This document shows positions 13,001 through 43,929 of a DNA stretch of 64,000 nt, piece by piece; the stretch's first letter is position 1, and every line of letters starts with the position of its first letter. The stretch is taken from positions 35,960 to 99,959 of the IMG/VR virus record IMGVR_UViG_3300023502_000001. One strand, given 5' to 3'. The stretch is from a virus. The notes beneath the pieces were generated by a model. That model made no database searches and was not told where the DNA came from. It worked only from the letters and a program-made list of their open reading frames with translations. Position numbers and translations under genes: made by a program.

Positions 13001-13749
13001 TACCCGAAGTGGCATTACTCTGGAAGTATGCCGTACTTCCATATGTAGCCATAAGCATGGGTTATTTTATGATTGCAACAATCGGTGATATGTCTTTTGC
13101 AATTAACAGTTTTTGCTAGACCATTATCTACAAGCCATTGAGCTGCTTCTTCTCTTCCCCAGAAGTGCTATATATAATTGCCAGCCATATCAAATTGATC
13201 AATTTTCTTAGCAGACCCACCTCTGATTTTAATGTCATGAGCTTTCAATACTTTTCTTACAGTATCATCACTACATCCCACTTTCTCCGCAACTTTTTTG
13301 CAAGTATATCCCATATTGTACAGTTCGATTATCTCTTGATAATCATATAACTATGTTCCGTCACCACCCTTAGTAGCATTATAGCCTTTGGAGCCATAAG
13401 TTTCCAACTCTTTTATCCAATATACCTCTCTTTCTGAAAGTATGTTTTCGTCCTTTACATATTCTAATTCCTCTACTATAAAGTTTTCAACTCCATATTT
13501 ATTCATAGCATCATATAATGGACGTTTTTCACATCTTTCTTTTCGAGAATCCTTGCAGTGTTCCTAAAATCTTTCCTATATAGTAAAGAGGGTTTTACCA
13601 ACGTATCTTTTATTGTTGATAATATTTGTAATGCAATAGATATATCCCATATCATAAACTATTTATAACATTATTAATAATTGATTGAATTAGCTTTACC
13701 CAAAACACACCACGTGGAGGTTTCAATCTTGTGTTTCTACCCGAAGTGG
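13001..13749 (-). mobile_element. GIY-YIG homing-endonuclease cassette flanked by 12-nt direct repeats (tacccgaagtgg) derived from a tRNA 3' end
   Basis: direct repeats at 13001-13012 and 13738-13749; a 3'-fragment of a tRNA (T-arm GTGGGTTCGAGTCCCAC plus acceptor) at about 13735-13790; motif cacaccacgtggaggtt shared with the second cassette. Confidence 0.5.
13015..13650 (-). CDS. GIY-YIG homing endonuclease (TAG-recoded)
   Basis: hand translation of minus strand gives MGYIYCITNIINNKRYVGKT...KRFQEH...NKYG (GIY-YIG motifs), 211 aa, with 4 in-frame TAG codons. Paralogous to 25854..26429; invisible to standard-code ORF calling. Confidence 0.7.
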
Positions 13750-13791
13750 GACTCGAACCCACACGCCCGCAATGGGCATCAAATACATCTG

Positions 13792-13876
13792 TGACACAGA
13801 AGGGAATCGAACCCTCAATCCCATAAAGGGCAACGCATTTTAAGTGCGTTTCGTATACCAGTTCCGACACTGTGCC
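13792..13876 (-). tRNA. tRNA-Leu(TAA)
   Basis: hand fold: acceptor GGCACAG/CTGTGTC, anticodon stem ACGCA/TGCGT, loop CTTAAAA, long variable arm, T-loop GGTTCGATTCC. Confidence 0.65.
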
Positions 13877-13882
13877 ATCCTA

Positions 13883-14377
13883 TTATTTACCTATGTTCTT
13901 GCCACGGTAGTTATCAGTAAAAGCATGACAATTTGGACAGAGTAGTTGTAAATTCTCTATTCTCAAATCATCCTTAATACCATTTACATGATGTAATTCT
14001 AGAGCAATAGGTTTACCCATCCACTCTGTATTACCACAACATTCACATTTGTACTCTTTCACACATTCCTTTAACAATCTGTCTTTTAAATGATAGGTAC
14101 TTCTATAGGAAGAGTGCTCTATTAAAATAGATTCTAACGATTGTGCTTCCTTTATAGGTTTATATCTATCTCCTTGATTCCAAGCTTGTCCAGTCATGTG
14201 AGATGTATCTAAGTTAAGTTCACTAATCTTACGCTTTACAGTTTCATAGTTACTGCCAGCAGGTTTAAGTCCTAACTTTCTCATTACTTCTGCATGAGAT
14301 AGGCTAGTCTTTACTGCTTCAATGAATTGTTCGTCTGTCCATTTTCTCTTACTCATCCTTGTATATTTAATACACAA
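13883..14377 (-). CDS. HNH endonuclease
   Basis: 164 aa; C-terminal HNH motif ...LELHHVNGIKDD...LCPNCH. Confidence 0.7.
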   Translation of the reverse strand: MCIKYTRMSKRKWTDEQFIEAVKTSLSHAEVMRKLGLKPAGSNYETVKRKISELNLDTSHMTGQAWNQGDRYKPIKEAQSLESILIEHSSYRSTYHLKDRLLKECVKEYKCECCGNTEWMGKPIALELHHVNGIKDDLRIENLQLLCPNCHAFTDNYRGKNIGK

Positions 14378-14575
14378 AGATAGTAATTAAATTTGAGTCT
14401 ACCTAATTCATTAAGTTAAAATTTGTGAACGCCTGACGCGTCTACCAATTTCGCCATTCGGGCATAATGACAGCTATTCTCACGAACCACTGTCGAGAAT
14501 AATCCTAATTATTTATTTCTTACTAGATTAGTCTCTAAATTGTTAAATTCAAAGTTAAAATCCGTTAAGAAATGT

Positions 14576-19961: not shown

Positions 19962-20033
19962 TAACGCCAACGGGATTCGAACCCGTATGGCAGGCGTGAA
20001 AAGCCTAAATCCTAACCATTAGATGATGGCGCT
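19962..20033 (-). tRNA. tRNA-Glu(TTC)
   Basis: hand fold: acceptor AGCGCCA/TGGCGTT, anticodon stem TAGGC/GCCTG, loop TTTTCAC. Confidence 0.6.
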
Positions 20034-20036
20034 ATC

Positions 20037-20711
20037 CTACTGCACAATCAAGCTATAAGCTTCTTGCAACAGTTTAATAGTTGGAACCATACGGTTATCA
20101 ACAACTATTATTTTATAAATGTTCAGAATTTCTTTGTAGGTTAAAGATGTACAAGTTAGAAATATCTGCACATCTTCGTTTACAGAACCATTTGACAATC
20201 CCAAATCTACTTTAATCATACTGGGTAATGTTCCAATCTGAGAAATATCCCAAGTAGATTTAGTTCTCCTGAAAACTTCCCGCTGTTTGGAGGTAAGTTG
20301 CTTTTCTTTCAATCTAGACTCGATAATAGTACCATCGAACGTTAACGAACCTCCATCGGTATTACTATTATTTAATGCTAGCTGAATCTTCTGAACTGCA
20401 GAGTCTTTAGGTTTTGGCTTAAGTTGTACTCCTTCCTTCAAGCCCTTAATAATCTGCAATGAAGGAATAAAGTCTTTTATTTGAGTTGCATTCCATACAA
20501 GAAATTTTCCAGGACTATCCTTAACAGTAACTATATACTTAGTCCCTCCGTTCAATGGAATAATCACTTGTAAGTCTGCATCACTCATTTTACTTAAATG
20601 GTCTGATACTCTAACTTTGACGTTTCCAATGACAAAGTAGCGAGAAACAGTTGTTTCCGCTTCGATAATCTCAGTAGCAGTTGCTACTAAATACTTTTCT
20701 AATCTAGTCAT
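20037..20711 (-). CDS. hypothetical protein
   Basis: 224-aa ORF. Confidence 0.6.
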   Translation of the reverse strand: MTRLEKYLVATATEIIEAETTVSRYFVIGNVKVRVSDHLSKMSDADLQVIIPLNGGTKYIVTVKDSPGKFLVWNATQIKDFIPSLQIIKGLKEGVQLKPKPKDSAVQKIQLALNNSNTDGGSLTFDGTIIESRLKEKQLTSKQREVFRRTKSTWDISQIGTLPSMIKVDLGLSNGSVNEDVQIFLTCTSLTYKEILNIYKIIVVDNRMVPTIKLLQEAYSLIVQ

Positions 20712-20811: not shown

Positions 20812-20855
20812 ATAAATGCCGAGACTGGGGGATTCGAACCCCAACCTTCACAGTG

Positions 20856-20927
20856 CCGAGAGTACCAGACTCGAACTGGTGACCTTCGCATAGACAGTGC
20901 ACTATTCTACCACTGAACTAACCCTCG
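20856..20927 (-). tRNA. tRNA-like, reads as Asp(GTC) with imperfect anticodon stem; followed by a 3'-half tRNA remnant at 20822-20855
   Basis: acceptor CGAGGGT/ACTCTCG, D-arm GTTC..GAAT, loop CTGTCTA, T-arm ACCAGTTCGAGTCTGGT; downstream second T-arm TGGGGTTCGAATCCCCA without a 5' half. Confidence 0.4.
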
Positions 20928-20938
20928 GTGTAACTGGA

Positions 20939-21490
20939 TTACTCCAGACTAATTAAACCCTTCTCTAACATAATATGGTGATTCGGACATAACCATACTA
21001 AATTATTCTCGTTGTTAATCTCCTTAATAAGAGTGTCTTCGTCAAATTCTAATATTCCTTTAAGATGATGTACTTCAAGTATTGCATCAAATTCATGATT
21101 ATGACAATATTGACATACTTTCTCACGTTCGGAACTTTCTAATACTCTACGAGCATTAGTCCTTATTTCTTGACATTTAGATGATAAGTACTTCTGCCCA
21201 GATGTATAATAACCTAATGTTTTGTTACCAATTCCATTAAGTTCTTCCCAGCAACTACGACACATTTCTGAATCTTTATGCTTAGGTTTACCACATCTAG
21301 GACATATCTTGTTTTCATCGTGCTTTATCCTACCTCTATTATTGTAAGAAGCAGCACACGAATGACTACAAAACTGTTTCTTCCTCACATCTGCGACCCT
21401 CTGATTATCTAGTACTTCGATTACCTTACCACATTCCTTACAGTGGTTAGGATTCTCATAATACAATTTAAGAGATTGTTCTCGATTCAC
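20939..21490 (-). CDS. HNH endonuclease
   Basis: 183 aa; zinc-binding CxxC pairs and HNH motif ...EVHHLKG...NLVWLCPNHH. Confidence 0.7.
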   Translation of the reverse strand: MNREQSLKLYYENPNHCKECGKVIEVLDNQRVADVRKKQFCSHSCAASYNNRGRIKHDENKICPRCGKPKHKDSEMCRSCWEELNGIGNKTLGYYTSGQKYLSSKCQEIRTNARRVLESSEREKVCQYCHNHEFDAILEVHHLKGILEFDEDTLIKEINNENNLVWLCPNHHIMLEKGLISLE

Positions 21491-21627
21491 AGATAAGTTT
21501 AATTAATTTTAATGACAGTGTGATATGCAAGCCATTACACCACAGCCTCGAAAATGCAGGTATTTATCTCGTTACACCTGCGAGTCCGGCAATCCTTTCT
21601 TATATACCGCGTGAGCTGGCGGTTTTG

Positions 21628-21701: not shown

Positions 21702-21707
21702 ATTATG

Positions 21708-22269
21708 TGGACCTAACGGGAGTCGAACCCGTGTCCAAACAACCCTCGTTACAAGGATAACGTGCGTCTCATTTTTATTATATCAGCTAGGGAGTTCTAG
21801 CATTTAGGTAGTTTTATAAGTCTTACAAGAGTCCATACTAAGTATTTCTCTAGATGCTTATCTACAAGCTACCAAACTATAGGGCTGACCGAAGTCAACG
21901 TTCCACCACTCCATTTACGTTGGAGAACGGGATGATACTTTAGAGATTCGTCACATCTCACGGAACACATCTTCCATCTGTTTTATGACATAGGAGATTC
22001 AGTCTTACTAACTCTTAGAGTGTTCTGATTAAGAGCATATTACTAGGATTAGAGCCTAGCTCTCCATTATATCAATATACTCAACCTCTTCTGTTTCTAG
22101 GTCTCTCCCGTAACCCGACTTAGTTAATAGTGTCTACCAACAAGCCAGCAGCTTAGGCTGCCATTCTTACTTCGCTATAAGCAGCATTTATTGTTTTTTC
22201 TTCGTTTAAAGAGATTGCGCTCTACACGTCCTTATAATTTGTAATCGCCTGTCAAATCCAAGTAGGCCC
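21708..22269 (-). ncRNA. ssrA: tmRNA (ssrA)-like
   Basis: 3' end GGACACGGGTTCGACTCCCGTTAGGTCCA closely parallels the E. coli tmRNA 3' end; 5' end GGGCCTACTTGGATTTGACAGGCG parallels GGGGCUGAUUCUGGAUUCGACGGG; acceptor GGGCCUA/UAGGUCC pairs with a G3-U70 (Ala identity); a possible tag ORF ends ...MAA-TAA. About 560 nt, longer than typical. Confidence 0.6.
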
Positions 22270-23950: not shown

Positions 23951-24136
23951 TTACAAATGCTTTTTAAATATTTCACAATGATTGTATTCACCTCCCCAAC
24001 GTATGGGATATTCTTCTTCCTTGGCTTTCTTATAGCCTTCGGCTTCCTTTTTATCCAGAAATATCTGACACTCAGTTTTATAGTTCTGAGGCGCATTAGC
24101 TGGATGATGGTTCACTACGACTACGTATACTTTCAT
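23951..24136 (-). CDS. hypothetical protein
   Basis: 61-aa ORF between tRNAs. Confidence 0.4.
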   Translation of the reverse strand: MKVYVVVVNHHPANAPQNYKTECQIFLDKKEAEGYKKAKEEEYPIRWGGEYNHCEIFKKHL

Positions 24137-24154
24137 AATTATTTAATTTTGTTG

Positions 24155-24227
24155 TGGACACGCAGGGACTCGAACCCTATCTTCCGGTGTGCAAAACCAG
24201 CGCTCTAGCCATTTGAGCTAACGGCCC
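24155..24227 (-). tRNA. tRNA-Ala(TGC)-like (weak acceptor stem but G3-U70 present)
   Basis: D-arm GCTCAAATGGCTAGAGC, anticodon stem CTGGT/ACCGG, loop TTTGCAC; acceptor GGGCCGT vs CGTGTCC pairs only 4/7. Confidence 0.45.
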
Positions 24228-24491
24228 ATGTTTGAGATTTTCTTTTTAATTGGTGACATAACTCATAAATTTCCACTGTTAGGATTCCATAACCTAACAT
24301 CACCAGATAAGTCTTTAATTAGTTATATTCTGGATACATAAGTTTGTAACTATATATCTTTTAACGGCAACCATCCGTTTAACAATTCTCAAGTTCAGCT
24401 TGCCTATTATAACTACGCAGGGACTGGCTTCGACTTATTAGCATAAATGCTAACAGACCCCGACTGGATTTTTACCTTGCCAGGTTAGTAT

Positions 24492-24689
24492 TTACTTAAT
24501 AATTACTTTCTTAGCGCTTTCTCTAGCTTTAGCTTGCCTAATCTTATAGTCTCTAACTACTTCCTTCATATGGGTATTAAATTCTTTCATATCCTCCCAT
24601 GATACAGGATTAGATAGTTTAGGCTTAGTAAATATGCTATAACTTTCTAGGCTTTTCATTTTCTTCTTTCTGTTTACGAGCCTTCTCAC
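24492..24689 (-). CDS. hypothetical basic protein
   Basis: 65-aa ORF. Confidence 0.4.
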   Translation of the reverse strand: MRRLVNRKKKMKSLESYSIFTKPKLSNPVSWEDMKEFNTHMKEVVRDYKIRQAKARESAKKVIIK

Positions 24690-24926
24690 ACGCTTTCCGT
24701 CTCATTACGTATGGACAATCACAGCACCCACTGGCAGGATTATACCAACAACAATAATCACATTGATGCATATCTAACAGCAAATTGTTTATTTCTCTTT
24801 GTTAATACTTTAATCGCTTCCCATATGTCTTTAATATCATTTGGAATTTTACCTTTCTTGTCCATCATATTCCTCTTTCTGCACTCTCTAGACACTTCCC
24901 TAAGAACTCGTCTTTTGATAGTGGAG

Positions 24927-25292
24927 TTAACCTTCCTTATTTTCATACAAATCTAATTTTTCAAATCTAACAAAATGTCCACCGCCTTGTTGAGGCGGAA
25001 GTATCAAGTTTGGGAAGCGACTACTCCATAGTGCTAATCCAAGAGGAGACGTGCTTGTGAAAAACTCTCCAAGTTCCGATATAGGTTTTTTCAGTTCTCT
25101 AAGTTTTTCCGAAATTTCCTTATACCTTTTACTCTTTTTATTAATCCCACTTCGCTGTGCCTCTAACTCAGCTATATTATCTAATATAGGTTTGACAATA
25201 GACTTGTAGTCTTCCTGAGTTATTAACAGCTTAACTTGACTTATACCATTTGCATAAGTAAGTTTAAACTTTCCAATAGGTTGTACTATCAT
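24927..25292 (-). CDS. hypothetical protein
   Basis: 121-aa ORF. Confidence 0.5.
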   Translation of the reverse strand: MIVQPIGKFKLTYANGISQVKLLITQEDYKSIVKPILDNIAELEAQRSGINKKSKRYKEISEKLRELKKPISELGEFFTSTSPLGLALWSSRFPNLILPPQQGGGHFVRFEKLDLYENKEG

Positions 25293-25452
25293 ATCTAATT
25301 AATTAAAAGTTGGTGGATGCTAGCCGTTTCTATTCCACCATTGCGTACTACAGTGCTAGCTACCGTCTAGACGACTCTCTTCCTCACATCGGTCTAGAGT
25401 TTGCTGGATTACTATTGCTTAGTTAAAAACTAAGGAGGGTTCAGCAAAAAGG

Positions 25453-25536
25453 CGTATGGTGCAGGATTCGAACCTGCGATGGGATTTCTCACGACGGGTT
25501 AACAGCCCGCTGCCGTCGGCCACTTGGCTAACCATA
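25453..25536 (-). tRNA. class-II-like tRNA with anomalous anticodon loop (reads GTT)
   Basis: acceptor GTATGGT/ACCATAC, discriminator G, anticodon stem GCGGG/CCCGT, loop CTGTTAA, 16-nt variable arm, T-arm GCAGGTTCGAATCCTGC; a class II tRNA with anticodon GTT is not canonical. Confidence 0.4.
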
Positions 25537-25780
25537 CATATTATTTCCTCCCAGACATCTGTAAGTACCCCATTGGTACTTACCTTTTAATGATATTTTT
25601 ACTCTTGTCCTCTGTATGGAGGAGGTATTGTTCCAGACACTAACCAAGTGTAGTTCTTAGAACTCTGTTCAAAATACCATTTAGCAGCTTTCTTTACAAC
25701 ATTAATTACTTTCTTCATAACATTAAAGTTTAAAATTGTTAATAATTAATCTAATAACAGAGCCACAAAAGGAGTTTAGT

Positions 25781-26529
25781 TGCGGAGGTAGGATTATTTC
25801 CAAATAAATTTATATGCAGTTTTCAATTTCCCTTTTACACATAAACTAATCTTCTAGCGAACACCTCCATTATAAGTTTTAGCATAGCCATTGTCTACTA
25901 ACCAGTGTGCAGCATCGGCTATACTGTTCCAAGTCCTGATAAAGTTATTATTTAAATCATACTGAGATATTGATACAGGTTGCTTGCAACTTCCCAAATA
26001 AAATTTGTTCTTTGGTATATTGTTTATATTTATTACTTTAGAAACTGTATCAACAGAACATTGCATTTTGGCGGAAACTTCAATCATTGTCATTCCGCTA
26101 GTATATAAAGATATTATTTCTTTATAATCGAATAAGATAGCTCCATCGCCTCCCATAGTAGCATTATAGCCATTTGAGTATGTGTCTAGCTTATCTATAA
26201 ATTGAATTTCATAAGAAGCTAATTCCTCATCATCACATTCATACAGCTACTCAACTATGAAATTCTCAACCCCGTACTTATTCATAGCATCATATAGCGG
26301 CCTCTTTTCACATCTTTCCTTCTTGCAATCATTACAATGTTCTTTAAATCTCTTAGTTACAGAATAAGTAGTTTTTCCAACATACTATTTTCCATTAATT
26401 AAATTTGTAATACAATAAATATATCCCATGTTCTATTCTTATTTAAAATTAAACATATTAGTAAGATTAGCGTTATCCAACTCACACCACGTGGAGGTTC
26501 TTACTTGCGAGTCTTGCGGAGGTAGGATT
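25781..26529 (-). mobile_element. GIY-YIG homing-endonuclease cassette flanked by 16-nt direct repeats (ttgcggaggtaggatt) matching the 3' end of the adjacent tRNA
   Basis: direct repeats at 25781-25796 and 26514-26529; shares cacaccacgtggaggtt with the cassette at 13.0-13.75 kb. Confidence 0.5.
25854..26429 (-). CDS. GIY-YIG homing endonuclease (TAG-recoded)
   Basis: track ORF 25854..26156 extends upstream through 2 in-frame TAGs to MGYIYCITNLINGKQYVGKT...KRFKEH...NKYG (GIY-YIG motifs); about 191 aa. Confidence 0.7.
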
Positions 26530-26593
26530 CGAACCGTTTATGACGATTTCTAGGTTATGAGCCTAGCGAGATGACCAACTTCTCTACTCCACT
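26514..26593 (-). tRNA. tRNA-Met/Ile2(CAT)-like, imperfect
   Basis: acceptor AGTGGAG/CTCCGCA (1-72 A/A mismatch), D-stem GAGA/TCTC, anticodon stem CTAGG/CCTAG, loop CTCATAA, weak T-stem. Confidence 0.4.
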
Positions 26594-26599
26594 ATATTG

Positions 26600-26673
26600 A
26601 CTCGGTGGTCAGATTCGAACTGACGAACTAAGGATTTGCAGTCCTAGCCATTAAACCACTCTGGTACACCGAG
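26600..26673 (-). tRNA. tRNA-Cys(GCA)
   Basis: acceptor CTCGGTG/CACCGAG, loop CTGCAAA, T-arm GTCAGTTCGAATCTGAC. Confidence 0.5.
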
Positions 26674-26677
26674 ATTG

Positions 26678-26758
26678 TTCCGATTAAAGGATTTGAACCC
26701 CTGACCTCCCGCTGATGTTTTGGATGCGGACGCTCTAACCAGACTGAGCTAAATCGGA
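26678..26758 (-). tRNA. tRNA-Trp(CCA)-like with expanded 13-nt anticodon loop
   Basis: good acceptor TCCGATT/AATCGGA, D-arm TAGCTCAGTCTGGTTAGAGC and T-arm, but anticodon stem TCCGC/GCGGG encloses ATCCAAAACATCA. Confidence 0.35.
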
Positions 26759-26764
26759 ATATTG

Positions 26765-26836
26765 AGTAGGTAATGAGAATCGAACTCACATCATCGGCAT
26801 GGCAAGCCGATGCACTAACCGTTGTGCTATACCTAC
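26765..26836 (-). tRNA. tRNA-Gly(GCC)
   Basis: acceptor GTAGGTA/TACCTAC, D GCAC/GTGC, anticodon stem TCGGC/GCCGA, loop TTGCCAT. Confidence 0.65.
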
Positions 26837-26841
26837 AAATG

Positions 26842-26916
26842 TGCAGATAGAGAGACTCGAACTCTCCCCTTCAGATTGGAAGTCTGACGTGCTCAAACCA
26901 TTAACACCACATCTGC
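26842..26916 (-). tRNA. tRNA-Gly(TCC)
   Basis: acceptor GCAGATG/TATCTGC, anticodon stem TCAGA/TCTGA, loop CTTCCAA. Confidence 0.55.
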
Positions 26917-26952
26917 ATTGAGGAGAGTTATGCGATACTCTCCTAAACGCTA

Positions 26953-27297
26953 CTACGAATGTAGTAATTCTTGGGCTTCAATTTCGCCAATTATTTTAGT
27001 AAGTGCGATCTTGAATGGATTTCCCTTGATTTTGTCGAAGAGATTGGCATCGCGTACCTCCTCAACTTTGTCTGGAACATTCAATTTTCTTTTACCGTTG
27101 TCTACGGTTTTCCATGTGATAACTGTGCAACGCTTCACGTCATAAACGCTGTCGTTGCGGTCAACGAACACCTTGAAGAAGTTTCTTTTGTGCTTTACTA
27201 CCTCAACTCTTTTAAAGTTTTTGATAGGTGCGTGCATTTTCAAGTCACATCTTCCATTAGCTAAGAAAATCAATTCTGCCATAATAATACTCTGCAT
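26953..27297 (-). CDS. hypothetical protein
   Basis: 114-aa ORF. Confidence 0.5.
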   Translation of the reverse strand: MQSIIMAELIFLANGRCDLKMHAPIKNFKRVEVVKHKRNFFKVFVDRNDSVYDVKRCTVITWKTVDNGKRKLNVPDKVEEVRDANLFDKIKGNPFKIALTKIIGEIEAQELLHS

Positions 27298-27419
27298 AGT
27301 CAGAGATTCAAAGTTAAACTATGTTAATTCCAGTCTTTCGTCTGGCACTCCACCTCGTTTTAACCAATAGCTACTGTCCTTCACTATCTGAGCTAAGCTC
27401 TAAACTGGGATAAAGGTAT

Positions 27420-27806
27420 TTATTCTATAAATATAAAAGAAGTTCCGTATCTGTCCAAGAATGATTCCAGATATTCAGTCATTTCATTGTTAGTTTCGAA
27501 ATACAGAACCTCATCACATTCATCGCTTAATTCAAAAACTATGTGAGGTTTAGTATATACTACCCCATTTTTAAAGAAGTCCTTCTTGGGGTCTAATTCT
27601 GCGATCATTTCTTCTTCAGAAAAACACTCTCCAAGATACAGACAATTGTACCAGTAGTCGTGGTGCCTCTTCCAGAAAAAGAAAACAGAGGAATCATACA
27701 CATAGTGTTCCCAATACCTATTAGTTCTAGTTTTATAAGCTAAAACTCTCCTAACCAAATTTCCATTAATATACGTATCCATAATTAATCCCAATATTCT
27801 GGACAA
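27420..27806 (-). CDS. hypothetical protein
   Basis: 128-aa ORF. Confidence 0.55.
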   Translation of the reverse strand: MSRILGLIMDTYINGNLVRRVLAYKTRTNRYWEHYVYDSSVFFFWKRHHDYWYNCLYLGECFSEEEMIAELDPKKDFFKNGVVYTKPHIVFELSDECDEVLYFETNNEMTEYLESFLDRYGTSFIFIE

Positions 27807-28258
27807 TTATCCACTGTTAATAATCCTTTTTCGCATAGACCTCCGTCATAAAATATACATGACGAGCAAGAAAGATTATCTCTGGATTCATATTCCTGAA
27901 TACCCTCCTGAATATCTTTCTTAGCTTTGTATCTATCTTTTCTATTCTCTTTCTTGTATTCGTATTGCATCATTTTACTTCTATAAGGAGAAGTACAATT
28001 TTTTAGCATTTTAGCATACTTAGAACCATCTAGAAAATCTGTAATTGATTCGCAAACTCTCAATGCTTTATTCCTAAAAATAGGAACATTGTATTTTACA
28101 GTAGCTTTAATTCCATTAACAGGAATATAGAACCTTCCGCAAGAATCATAGACCTTTTTAGCCCTAGAAATCCACTTTCTTTTAGAAAGTTCTCTTCTTA
28201 ATTCTCTATCCATAAGCAATAAGATTAGTGTAGAATCTAGAGTGGGATTCGAACCCAC
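27785..28258 (-). CDS. hypothetical protein
   Basis: 157-aa ORF. Confidence 0.55.
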   Translation of the reverse strand: MGSNPTLDSTLILLLMDRELRRELSKRKWISRAKKVYDSCGRFYIPVNGIKATVKYNVPIFRNKALRVCESITDFLDGSKYAKMLKNCTSPYRSKMMQYEYKKENRKDRYKAKKDIQEGIQEYESRDNLSCSSCIFYDGGLCEKGLLTVDNCPEYWD

Positions 28259-28298
28259 GAAACACGGTTTTGCAGACCGTTCCCTTAGACCGCTCGGG
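28225..28298 (-). tRNA. tRNA-Cys(GCA)-like, second copy with 3-bp D-stem
   Basis: acceptor GTCTAGA/TCTAGAT, anticodon stem ACGGT/ACCGT, loop CTGCAAA, T-arm GTGGGTTCGAATCCCAC. Confidence 0.45.
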
Positions 28299-28343
28299 CA
28301 TCTAGACGTGATGGGAGACTAGCTTCTAATTCTTCCCGTGTCA

Positions 28344-40532: not shown

Positions 40533-40612
40533 GGTAAATTTTCTTAATGTTAATCCTGACTACCTATTTCTAGGTAGTTTCGTCTTAATTTTCAAAGACT
40601 CATCAGAGGATT

Positions 40613-41410
40613 TTATCTGAAGAAGGCTACTATAGTAACATCTTCCTCTTTGTTACAATACATGTTCCAGGCCTTATTGATTACTTCAATCTTTTCTACA
40701 TTCCTGCTGGTTGCAGCAATCATGTTTCTAGCCTGCTTGTACATCGGTTTCCCAGAAGATGCCAGCATTTCAAAGAATGTTGAAACTGTTTTAACTGGAT
40801 GTTCTAGCGAAATGATTAATAGGGCTGATACGGCTCCTATAATAGATGCTCCACATATTCCTTTCAACCCATTCTTAACGGCAGTACTACCAATGTATGA
40901 GCAACAATCATATATAAGACGGTTGTCAAGGTAAATTGTCAGTAGATCTTCCGGAGTGTGTTTCTTCCTTAGTTTACTGTAAGACCCTTCGTCCAATGAC
41001 TTTAATTGGTCTTTTAGCAACATGTGCTTGCCAACAATTGCAGCCTTTACTAAGGAATCTGTTACTCCAGCTATGCCAAATACATCTCCCATAGACCTAC
41101 TCTTACCTTGGTCTATTGTAGTCCATGTTTTTCTCGGCACACCTGTAATGAGAATAGTATCAAAGGGTGTGTTAGCTTTTATACACGCTAACAGTCTGTG
41201 ATGGCCGTCAGACACGTCTCCATTCTCATCTAGTATTATGGATTCTCCATTTAATTCCCACTTTCCAGATGCCATCAGGTTGGCGTATTCAGTTACCCTA
41301 CTTCTATTAATAGTTCTATTACCTTTAGATTTCCCATAAAGTCTTTCTGCGTCTTCAGGGTAAATTCTAACCGTTTTACATTTGATTGCTGAGTTTGTTA
41401 AGTTTTCCAT
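40613..41410 (-). CDS. ParB-like nuclease domain protein
   Basis: 265 aa; ParB/Srx N-terminal-domain signature ...ILDENGDVSDGHHRLLA. Confidence 0.55.
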   Translation of the reverse strand: MENLTNSAIKCKTVRIYPEDAERLYGKSKGNRTINRSRVTEYANLMASGKWELNGESIILDENGDVSDGHHRLLACIKANTPFDTILITGVPRKTWTTIDQGKSRSMGDVFGIAGVTDSLVKAAIVGKHMLLKDQLKSLDEGSYSKLRKKHTPEDLLTIYLDNRLIYDCCSYIGSTAVKNGLKGICGASIIGAVSALLIISLEHPVKTVSTFFEMLASSGKPMYKQARNMIAATSRNVEKIEVINKAWNMYCNKEEDVTIVAFFR

Positions 41411-43136: not shown

Positions 43137-43207
43137 TTCCCCATTCTGGACTCGAACCAGAATCTCCTTCTTTAGAGGAAGGCGCAATAGCATTATACTA
43201 ATGGGGA
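43137..43207 (-). tRNA. atypical tRNA-like gene (anticodon loop CTAAAGA, reads AAA), possible pseudogene
   Basis: acceptor TCCCCAT/ATGGGGA and T-arm TCTGGTTCGAGTCCAGA are good; D-arm weak; A34 is unusual. Confidence 0.3.
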
Positions 43208-43929
43208 AATCCTATCTTGACAACTAGTATAAGATAGGAGATTATTTAGTATGTTTTCCAGACATACAACGTTATCAACGTTCACTAAATTCTGAGGTAG
43301 CTAATCTCAAAACTTGCGAATAGATTCGAGATGGAAAATGACGCCTTATGAGCGTCTCTCTTACTATCTAGCCTATATCTATCTGATGGCTTACTTCAGG
43401 CAACTTCCAATATTGCATACGAATACTTATAGGTGATATACTTTGGTCTACCAGCATATCAGTGGTACTTTGTAATATTGCCATAAGTGACCATTCATAT
43501 GGCTCAATCCTCTTGTAATAGTGTTCAAGTTTGCGAATATACACATTACAATCGTAGCAGTTATTTTCGGATATTGGGTTCTTCTGCGTAACCCGCTTTT
43601 TGTTACCTTTTTATAGGCAAATGTTAGAGTAAATAATCATTGTAGTATGTGTTATAAAACTCATCCTACTGGCGATTTTTTGAGAACTGGAGAAAGTCGG
43701 AAAATCGGCTGTCTTTTGCGTGGACAATTTCTCTCAGCCCTTACCATATTTTCACGTGCAACAATAGTCCCAATCTACATTAGAACCACATTACTTAATA
43801 TAATACTAAAATAAAATAACTACGACGAATTGATTTTGAAGTTTTTGTTTTGTTTTGTTGTTTTCTCCGTTAACCAATGGTCCGATGATGGAGTTCATGT
43901 GGGTATCTTATTTTGAAACCCATAATACC

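Follow-up and report, generated by a model that had tools for sequence, protein, structure and literature searches.

A GIY-YIG homing endonuclease gene paired with a predicted theta ribozyme at tRNA gene 3′ ends in a TAG-recoded gut phage

R2-type retrotransposons lie in a highly transcribed structural-RNA gene, are co-transcribed with it, and carry a 5′ HDV-like ribozyme that frees their RNA at the 5′ junction. Minimal HDV-like ribozymes, termed theta ribozymes, have been described beside the tRNAs of recoded gut phages (Kienbeck et al. 2024, PMC10879173), and T4 SegB, a free-standing GIY-YIG homing endonuclease encoded in the T4 tRNA cluster, targets tRNA genes via a T-arm motif, GGTTCRANTCC, and cuts at the 3′ end of the gene (PMC2330249). 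Theta ribozymes and SegB-type tRNA targeting are each known already. A theta ribozyme, a homing endonuclease and a target duplication within one mobile unit were not found described in the open-access literature, in which the only work found to bring together an HDV-like ribozyme and a homing endonuclease is that on R2 retrotransposons. The sequence comparisons described here make it probable that the locus under study is such a composite homing cassette, i.e. a GIY-YIG gene with a theta ribozyme at its 5′ edge, inserted at the 3′ end of a tRNA gene.

The window, that is the whole stretch of 64,000 nt that was analysed, has a G+C content of 36% and 27 tRNA genes called by ARAGORN, two of them CTA-anticodon suppressors. 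Two further tRNAs are detected by Rfam without an ARAGORN call (26678-26758, minus strand, 51.6 bits; 24155-24227, minus strand, 39.5 bits), and a tmRNA match (21705-22269, minus strand, 61 bits versus a threshold of 47) directly follows tRNA-Ile within the tRNA cluster. The plus-strand structural genes beyond 49979 have 13-28 in-frame TAGs each, and most minus-strand genes have none. PHROG assigns the large terminase and the portal to head-and-packaging families, the former being ~26% identical to crAss-like phage terminases and 44-46% identical to proteins of human-faecal phage contigs. Related contigs in IMG/VR measure 180-190 kb, and the source is accordingly classed as a large, TAG-recoded, crAss-related gut phage. 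The features of the locus near 26 kb (cassette 2), its flanks and the suppressor tRNAs are as follows.

26514..26593, minus strand: tRNA(CAT), initiator-like (26513-26594 by ARAGORN; also found with the Rfam tRNA model)
26514..26529: proximal 16-mer, the functional tRNA 3′ end, AATCCTACCTCCGCAA on the minus strand
26457..26513, minus strand: predicted minimal HDV-like (theta) ribozyme, 53-57 nt, G1 at 26513, core end at 26461
26430..26456, minus strand: AT-rich leader between the ribozyme and the endonuclease ATG
25794..26429, minus strand: putative GIY-YIG homing endonuclease gene, 211 codons plus a TAA stop at 25794-25796
25780..25795: distal 16-mer, an orphan tRNA 3′-end remnant with a 2-nt overlap with the TAA stop
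25599..25718, minus strand: conserved 39-codon ORF just downstream, part of the flank and not of the cassette
43137..43207, minus strand: suppressor tRNA(CTA), needed to read TAG codons
45599-45670, plus strand: second copy of the suppressor tRNA(CTA), from ARAGORN

A RAGATH-14 RNA (43236-43408, minus strand, 166 bits versus a threshold of 149) lies immediately upstream of the minus-strand suppressor tRNA.

The two 16-mers form a direct repeat. The sequence TTGCGGAGGTAGGATT has exactly two copies in the 64-kb window with two mismatches allowed, against a chance expectation of 0.01, and the recurrence at many unrelated sites that the earlier note had raised as a concern is not seen within the window. 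That note had placed the proximal copy correctly and the distal copy one base off (25781-25796 rather than 25780-25795). Its identification of the repeat as the 3′ end of a CAT-anticodon tRNA stands, the proximal copy being the last 16 nt of the minus-strand tRNA, where it covers the end of the T-loop, the 3′ strand of the T-stem, the 3′ strand of the acceptor stem and the discriminator. In empty sites CTAAACTCC..., the bases that follow the distal 16-mer here, come directly after the tRNA. In a scan for promoters and terminators, sigma-70-like sites occurred at chance level, and the minus strand from the tRNA to the endonuclease gene yielded no terminator.

The open reading frame of cassette 2 runs from 26429 to 25794 and includes three in-frame TAGs, at 26385-87, 26247-49 and 25854-56. 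The GIY-YIG identity previously given to it is retained, whereas its previous end (25854..26429, with two TAGs) arose from taking the third TAG as the stop codon. The 19 C-terminal residues beyond that TAG (KISLCVKGKLKTAYKFIWK) are kept in homologues, one of which (L249) has CAG in place of the third TAG, and among 38 homologues the TAG columns often align with Gln. The Pfam GIY-YIG profile (PF01541) is matched over its whole length at 40.7 bits versus a cut-off of 22.6; matches to C-terminal modules are weak and under their cut-offs (NUMOD1, 20.7 bits; HTH_28, 18 bits). A PHROG search with the protein leads to homing endonuclease families. Alignment with the catalytic domain of I-TevI (1MK0/1LN0), the closest solved structure, reveals retention of the Y, YxG, R, H, E and N positions, and T4 SegB is 35% identical over the N-terminal ~100 residues. 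The gene is accordingly annotated as encoding a free-standing GIY-YIG homing endonuclease.

The ribozyme, which is absent from the earlier note, was recognised from the likeness between the leaders that directly follow the tRNA ends in cassette 2 and in the cassette near 13 kb (cassette 1), when the two were aligned. In cassette 2, P1 is formed by GACUCGC/GUGAGUU, with a G1.U wobble, P2 by GUAAGA/UCUUAC and P3 by ACC/GGU; L3 is UCCACGU, P1.1 is GG, which would pair with CC of L3, and J4/2 is CUAA, its first base being the candidate catalytic C. These parts make up a predicted nested double pseudoknot, with P4 short or absent as in minimal HDV-like ribozymes. The predicted cleavage nucleotide, G1 (26513), is the first base past the tRNA discriminator (26514), and in both cassettes G1 lies within +/-5 nt of a tRNA 3′ end (a fragment end in cassette 1), the distance by which tRNA association has been defined in published work. 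Matches to the HDV ribozyme family of the F. prausnitzii type (Rfam RF02682) begin at G1 in both cassettes and score 22.7 bits (cassette 2) and 28.7 bits (cassette 1), which is below the gathering threshold of 44, so that neither is filed under that family. A covariance model (R1) was built from seven relatives, with the cassette 2 copy excluded and the cassette 1 copy included; it scores cassette 2 at 58.8 bits (E = 2e-12) and cassette 1, a member of the training set, at 75.2 bits. With filters off, it detects only the two cassette sites in 64 kb and none behind the other tRNAs; neither suppressor tRNA in the window is followed by a theta ribozyme. A type III hammerhead is weakly matched elsewhere (40578-40620, minus strand, 26.4 bits versus a threshold of 48.5, E = 0.12).

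Among 56 distinct ribozymes, pairing is 100% in both P1 and P3, both sides vary in six of the seven pairs of P1, and covariation scores 0.859 versus 0.197 for shuffles, as calculated on an alignment that was fitted to the model and in which many loci had been pre-selected with a descriptor already requiring P1 pairing. The P2 pseudoknot reaches at least 6 bp in 87.5% of ribozymes paired with their own tail versus 10% in cross-pairings. The first P1 pair is G1.U in 42 of the 56 and G-C in 13. The two window copies differ from one another by compensatory changes in P1 and P2. Both have GG and CUAA, and the C at the catalytic position is nearly invariant in the alignment (A5); P1.1 is without variation, so covariation speaks neither for nor against it. 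Minimum-free-energy folding of both ribozymes gave z-scores near 0, which are uninformative because the fold is pseudoknotted, and a plain MAFFT alignment, which misaligned P1, was set aside. The stretch from 26513 to 26457 is thus assigned as a minimal HDV-like (theta) ribozyme, with a fold backed by covariation and with predicted cleavage at G1.

The earlier note had also proposed that a paralogous cassette at 13 kb has the same layout, and this proves correct, the exact repeat there being 12 nt long (14/16 if extended).

13738..13790, minus strand: 3′ fragment of the original tRNA-Leu(TAA), adjoined by the cassette 1 ribozyme
13680..13737, minus strand: cassette 1 ribozyme (predicted), P1 GAAACAC/GUGUUUU, P2 GAUUGAA/UUCAAUC
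13015..13650, minus strand: cassette 1 GIY-YIG gene, 211 codons, four TAGs, protein 54% identical to that of cassette 2
13001..13012: cassette 1 distal remnant, CCACTTCGGGTA on the minus strand, with its partner at 13738-13749

In related loci (L010-L013), the counterpart of the cassette 1 ribozyme adjoins a full tRNA, not a fragment. In this genome it adjoins a dead fragment because tRNA-Leu(TAA) has been split by an insert of another type (13738-14465, minus strand), in which the old 5′ part (14465 to 14433) is followed by an HNH ORF (14356 to 13883, 157 aa), a new complete tRNA-Leu(taa) (13876 to 13791) and the old 3′ part (13790 to 13738). A cassette of this second type is also present at 20818-21560 (minus strand), where tRNA-Asp(GTC) is split in the anticodon loop, after ..CACACTGTCA at 21513, by a 657-nt insert (21512 to 20856) comprising an HNH endonuclease ORF that ends at 20939 and a complete, different tRNA-Asp(GTC) (20927 to 20855); the old 3′ half follows, from 20854 to ~20818. 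In two loci with flanks ~98% identical (L090 and L189), the old tRNA-Asp is intact and there is no HNH insert.

Relatives of cassette 2 were found by a scan with the tRNA(CAT) anticodon arm, and the locus sample is therefore pattern-driven. The site is empty in 35 fetched loci, where C[T/G]AAACTCC... comes straight after the identical tRNA, versus eight filled loci, some of the 35 and eight being overlapping fetches of one contig. An empty locus (L117) is 99.9% identical to window positions 23993-25795, and for the filled loci L003 and L184 the identity is 98.7-99.5% as far as 26598. From such near-identical empty and filled genomes, the cassette is a 734-nt indel consisting of the theta ribozyme, leader, GIY-YIG gene and one 16-mer, and it constitutes a clean presence/absence polymorphism. 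Beyond it, the region 26599-28324 is only ~80% identical to every relative, which places a mosaic boundary at the 5′ end of tRNA-Met. Two other filled loci (L001 and L004) match the window at 99% in the gene and at 99-100% in the ribozyme, but at only 90% in the adjoining small ORF, a value equal to that in diverged empty genomes; a cassette ~99% identical beside an ORF ~90% identical is the signature of recent lateral transfer. The tRNA-Asn at 25451-25537 (minus strand), 87 nt long in the window, is 73 nt long in the same two loci. Empty tRNA-Leu(TAA) sites, which were found with a tRNA-body pattern, the exact 29-nt trailer pattern having given filled sites only, are without both ribozyme and endonuclease gene.

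The poor T-stem and the 1-72 mismatch previously remarked on in tRNA(CAT) are both present. Its Rfam score of 36.7 bits is above the threshold of 29, although it is the lowest tRNA score within the scanned region 12000-46000. The mismatch is A1xA72 here and C1xA72 in most relatives. A 1-72 mismatch is a normal hallmark of bacterial initiator tRNAs. The suggestion that the tRNA had been damaged by the insertion does not hold, since the same sequence, odd T-arm region included, is found in every empty-site locus. In that region the 5′ strand of the T-stem is lengthened by ~7 nt (CATAAAC), and in the predicted fold an AAUCGU/ACGGUU hairpin replaces the T-arm; similar inserts at the same place occur in the CAT tRNAs of other phages (L152, L164 and L168). 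The GGTTCGAATCC DNA motif is retained, and is intact in tRNA(CAT) of the window at 26525-26535. Motifs of this type occur at 20 sites in the window, in tRNA genes and fragments, and two of these are occupied. The tRNA genes here do not encode CCA.

The association of this endonuclease family with tRNA genes extends well beyond the window. Among the 53 endonuclease loci of IMG/VR closest in homology, ~50 lie just downstream of a tRNA on the same strand, or of a ribozyme after a tRNA-like end, the tRNAs including Met, Cys, Pro, Leu(TAA), Leu(TAG), Thr, Asn, Ser and Glu. Together with empty sites in flanks 98-99.9% identical and a cassette that is more conserved than its flank, this adjacency bears out the proposal of the earlier note that the cassettes are homing-type elements tied to tRNA 3′ ends. 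The spacers between tRNA and gene fall into two classes, one of ~80 nt, holding the ribozyme, and one of ~20-40 nt, without it, in which several of the tRNAs encode CCA. A further GIY-YIG gene (L001 4200-5072 and L022-L031; 50% identical, six TAGs), without ribozyme or remnant, starts 19 nt past an 86-nt tRNA-Cys and lies between this and tRNA-Met, two genes that are 4-5 nt apart in the window. In nine tRNA contexts, an exact 12-17-nt copy of the 3′ end of the locus's own tRNA is present at the endonuclease stop codon, with the following lengths.

Cassette 2, 16 nt; L289, 16 nt; L311/L305, 15-16 nt; L076, 17 nt
Cassette 1 and L010-13, 12 nt (14/16 if extended); L009, 14 nt
L050, 12 nt; L014, 12 nt; L035, 14 nt

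As a control, the same 18-mers were compared with the 1.3 kb upstream, where at most 9 nt matched and none of 50 reached 11 nt. The right junction is mostly at the end of the T-loop (..TAA|TCC..). There are also cassettes with ribozyme and gene and no remnant (L017, L032, L041 and L048), a decaying cassette in which the gene is internally deleted (L076/L249), and recombinants of two neighbouring endonuclease genes (L005, L006 and L008) from which tRNA-Met has been deleted and in which its remnant is kept. In another locus (L126, ~3490) tRNA-Met keeps only its 5′ part, joined at GGTTCGAATCC to a 3′ end of other sequence that runs straight into a homologue of the window ORF 20019-20711, as if a deletion had brought two tRNA genes together at their T-loops. 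When sampled by the ribozyme core, this endonuclease gene, or its wreck, follows the ribozyme in 11 of 58 contexts. The link between ribozyme and endonuclease is thus frequent, not universal, and the ribozyme also exists alone. No remnant was found at the solo ribozymes, which rules out that they are simple deletion products retaining the remnant.

In the composite cassette model, the endonuclease would bind the T-arm motif (26525-35) of empty alleles and cut near the end of the tRNA gene, as SegB does, and, during co-infection, repair of the break would give the cut allele a copy of the cassette. Both the site recognised and the positions of the cuts are proposed by analogy with SegB, the catalytic domain of which is 35% identical and the C-terminal half of which is different; the positions of the junctions are compatible with targeting of this kind. 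Once in place, the cassette would be transcribed together with the tRNA cluster, and ribozyme cleavage after the discriminator would yield an exact tRNA 3′ end and a freed endonuclease mRNA. By restoring the tRNA end, the ribozyme would make the insertion cheap for the phage, as self-splicing does for intron-borne endonucleases. The three UAG codons, the first of which is codon 15, may delay full-length translation until the suppressor tRNA is active, in parallel with the middle or late expression of T4 endonuclease genes. Among the points against the model, the filled allele keeps an intact T-arm motif, so that self-immunity is not accounted for, and none of eight neighbouring ORFs scanned with Pfam matches a CCA-adding enzyme, an RNA ligase or a kinase/phosphatase. 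The sub-threshold Rfam scores, the ribozymes that exist alone and the cassettes without a remnant also count against it. A group I intron was considered and rejected, there being no intron family in Rfam E-value scans and the tRNA being complete upstream of the cassette.

The origin of the repeat can be read in two ways, which, because the repeats are perfect, are inseparable by sequence alone as to the point of insertion, i.e. in the T-loop or at the tRNA end. In the model preferred here, the 11-17-nt duplication would be made from the target itself on invasion of a new tRNA, possibly when the stretch from the T-loop to the 3′ end is cut in staggered fashion or several times, or by microhomology-mediated repair at the conserved T-loop ..TCC, illegitimate repair at microhomologies being documented for T4 introns. 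Alternatively, and differing only as to the origin of the repeat, the cassette may be inserted inside the T-loop and consist of a tRNA 3′-end copy, as its own repair patch, plus ribozyme and gene, in which case the distal 16-mer would be the end that the recipient had before, displaced by the cassette and renewed whenever homing takes place. The common position of the right junction in most contexts is as expected for T-loop insertion, as is the perfection of the remnants in six contexts despite protein identities of 48-77%, which fits a neutral remnant renewed from recipients; moreover, the HNH cassettes of the window do bring a whole replacement tRNA. A foreign patch would, however, mismatch the 5′ strands of a new tRNA, whereas both copies match the local tRNA in nine contexts. 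At the orthologous tRNA-Pro loci L009 and L050, the proteins of which are 77% identical, the T-stems are not alike, and each remnant agrees with the tRNA of its own locus. That each remnant matches its own tRNA implies that the duplication was made, or is renewed, from the local target. On balance, T-loop insertion with a carried patch is considered the less likely of the two readings.

It might also be argued that the endonuclease gene simply landed beside an existing tRNA-ribozyme unit, in which the ribozyme is a tRNA-processing device and the repeat is incidental. Such a chance association would account for the 47 of 58 sampled theta ribozymes that have no endonuclease gene behind them, and for two loci (L260 and L271) with tRNA-Met, ribozyme and a small ORF, without the endonuclease gene. 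At both window targets, however, the empty alleles also lack the ribozyme; ribozymes in the window occur solely in the two cassettes, behind none of the other tRNAs, and where the background has diverged, ribozyme and gene are conserved to the same degree. The leader after the ribozyme in L271 resembles the cassette leader, which suggests a cassette that has lost its gene. A chance association therefore appears improbable. Much less probable still is an origin of the 16-mers as an attL/attR-type duplication left by an integrase element, or as what survives of a tRNA duplicated in tandem. Integrases that target tRNA genes do classically leave direct repeats of the tRNA 3′ end, but the sole ORF in the 734-nt unit encodes the GIY-YIG protein and there is no recombinase; the empty sites have a single tRNA followed by the trailer, not two tRNAs, and the remnant always adjoins the endonuclease stop codon, in nine tRNA contexts.

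Beyond the composite cassette itself, a broader and more tentative proposal is that self-cleaving ribozymes form a third partner of homing endonucleases, after introns and inteins, with a GIY-YIG family that invades phage tRNA genes, duplicates 11-17 nt of them and has the end regenerated by a theta ribozyme; this reading of the sequences is possible, without our holding it to be the likelier outcome. It may be, with the same reserve, that the HNH endonuclease with its complete replacement tRNA is a different solution to the same problem in the same genome. If these proposals are correct, a selfish endonuclease gene would have a new way to occupy an essential RNA gene without destroying it, and theta ribozymes, so far read only as tRNA-maturation or code-switch devices, would gain a setting in mobile DNA, part of their gut-phage population having been spread, or left behind, by such cassettes. 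There would also be a reason for the mosaic nature of phage tRNA clusters. The target duplication hints at a mode of repair or cleavage without description for GIY-YIG enzymes in the literature examined. The short ribozyme, the 211-residue enzyme and the natural empty and filled alleles make a ready experimental system, and compact tRNA-ribozyme-gene modules may serve in engineering.

Among known systems, theta ribozymes (PMC10879173) are one of the closest. In the part of that work's supplement covered, the published ribozymes have the same order (|P1|J|P2|P3|L3|P3'|P1'|GG|short P4|CUAA|P2'|) and the same CCUCCACGUGG core, which occurs there at least 1439 times; the exact window sequences have no match in the part of the supplements covered. 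The cleavage site at the tRNA 3′ end is also shared, as is the setting in Bacteroidota-type gut phages with TAG recoding and tRNA genes without encoded CCA. By contrast, theta ribozymes are interpreted there in terms of tRNA maturation or code switching, the main text making no mention of endonucleases, homing or mobility, whereas the ribozyme of the present locus is gained or lost as one indel along with a homing endonuclease gene and a duplicated piece of the target. T4 SegB likewise has a GIY-YIG catalytic domain and a gene between same-strand tRNA genes; it differs in having no ribozyme and no tRNA-end remnant after its stop codon, in its unrelated C-terminal half, and in its spread, which is described as carrying the neighbouring tRNA genes along, in place of a compact cassette that sits at the end of its target (PMC2330249). 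In group I intron-borne endonucleases, such as I-TevI, a catalytic RNA also removes the cost of gene occupancy and the insertion is also inside the target, but the RNA here is predicted to cleave without splicing, and the downstream 'exon', i.e. the tRNA 3′ end, is duplicated, not re-ligated. Finally, the R2 retrotransposons share with the proposed cassette a place in a co-transcribed structural-RNA gene and an HDV-like ribozyme that would free the element's RNA at the exact 5′ junction. Unlike them, the cassette has no reverse transcriptase and has a phage host, and its mobility would be DNA-based and driven by the endonuclease.
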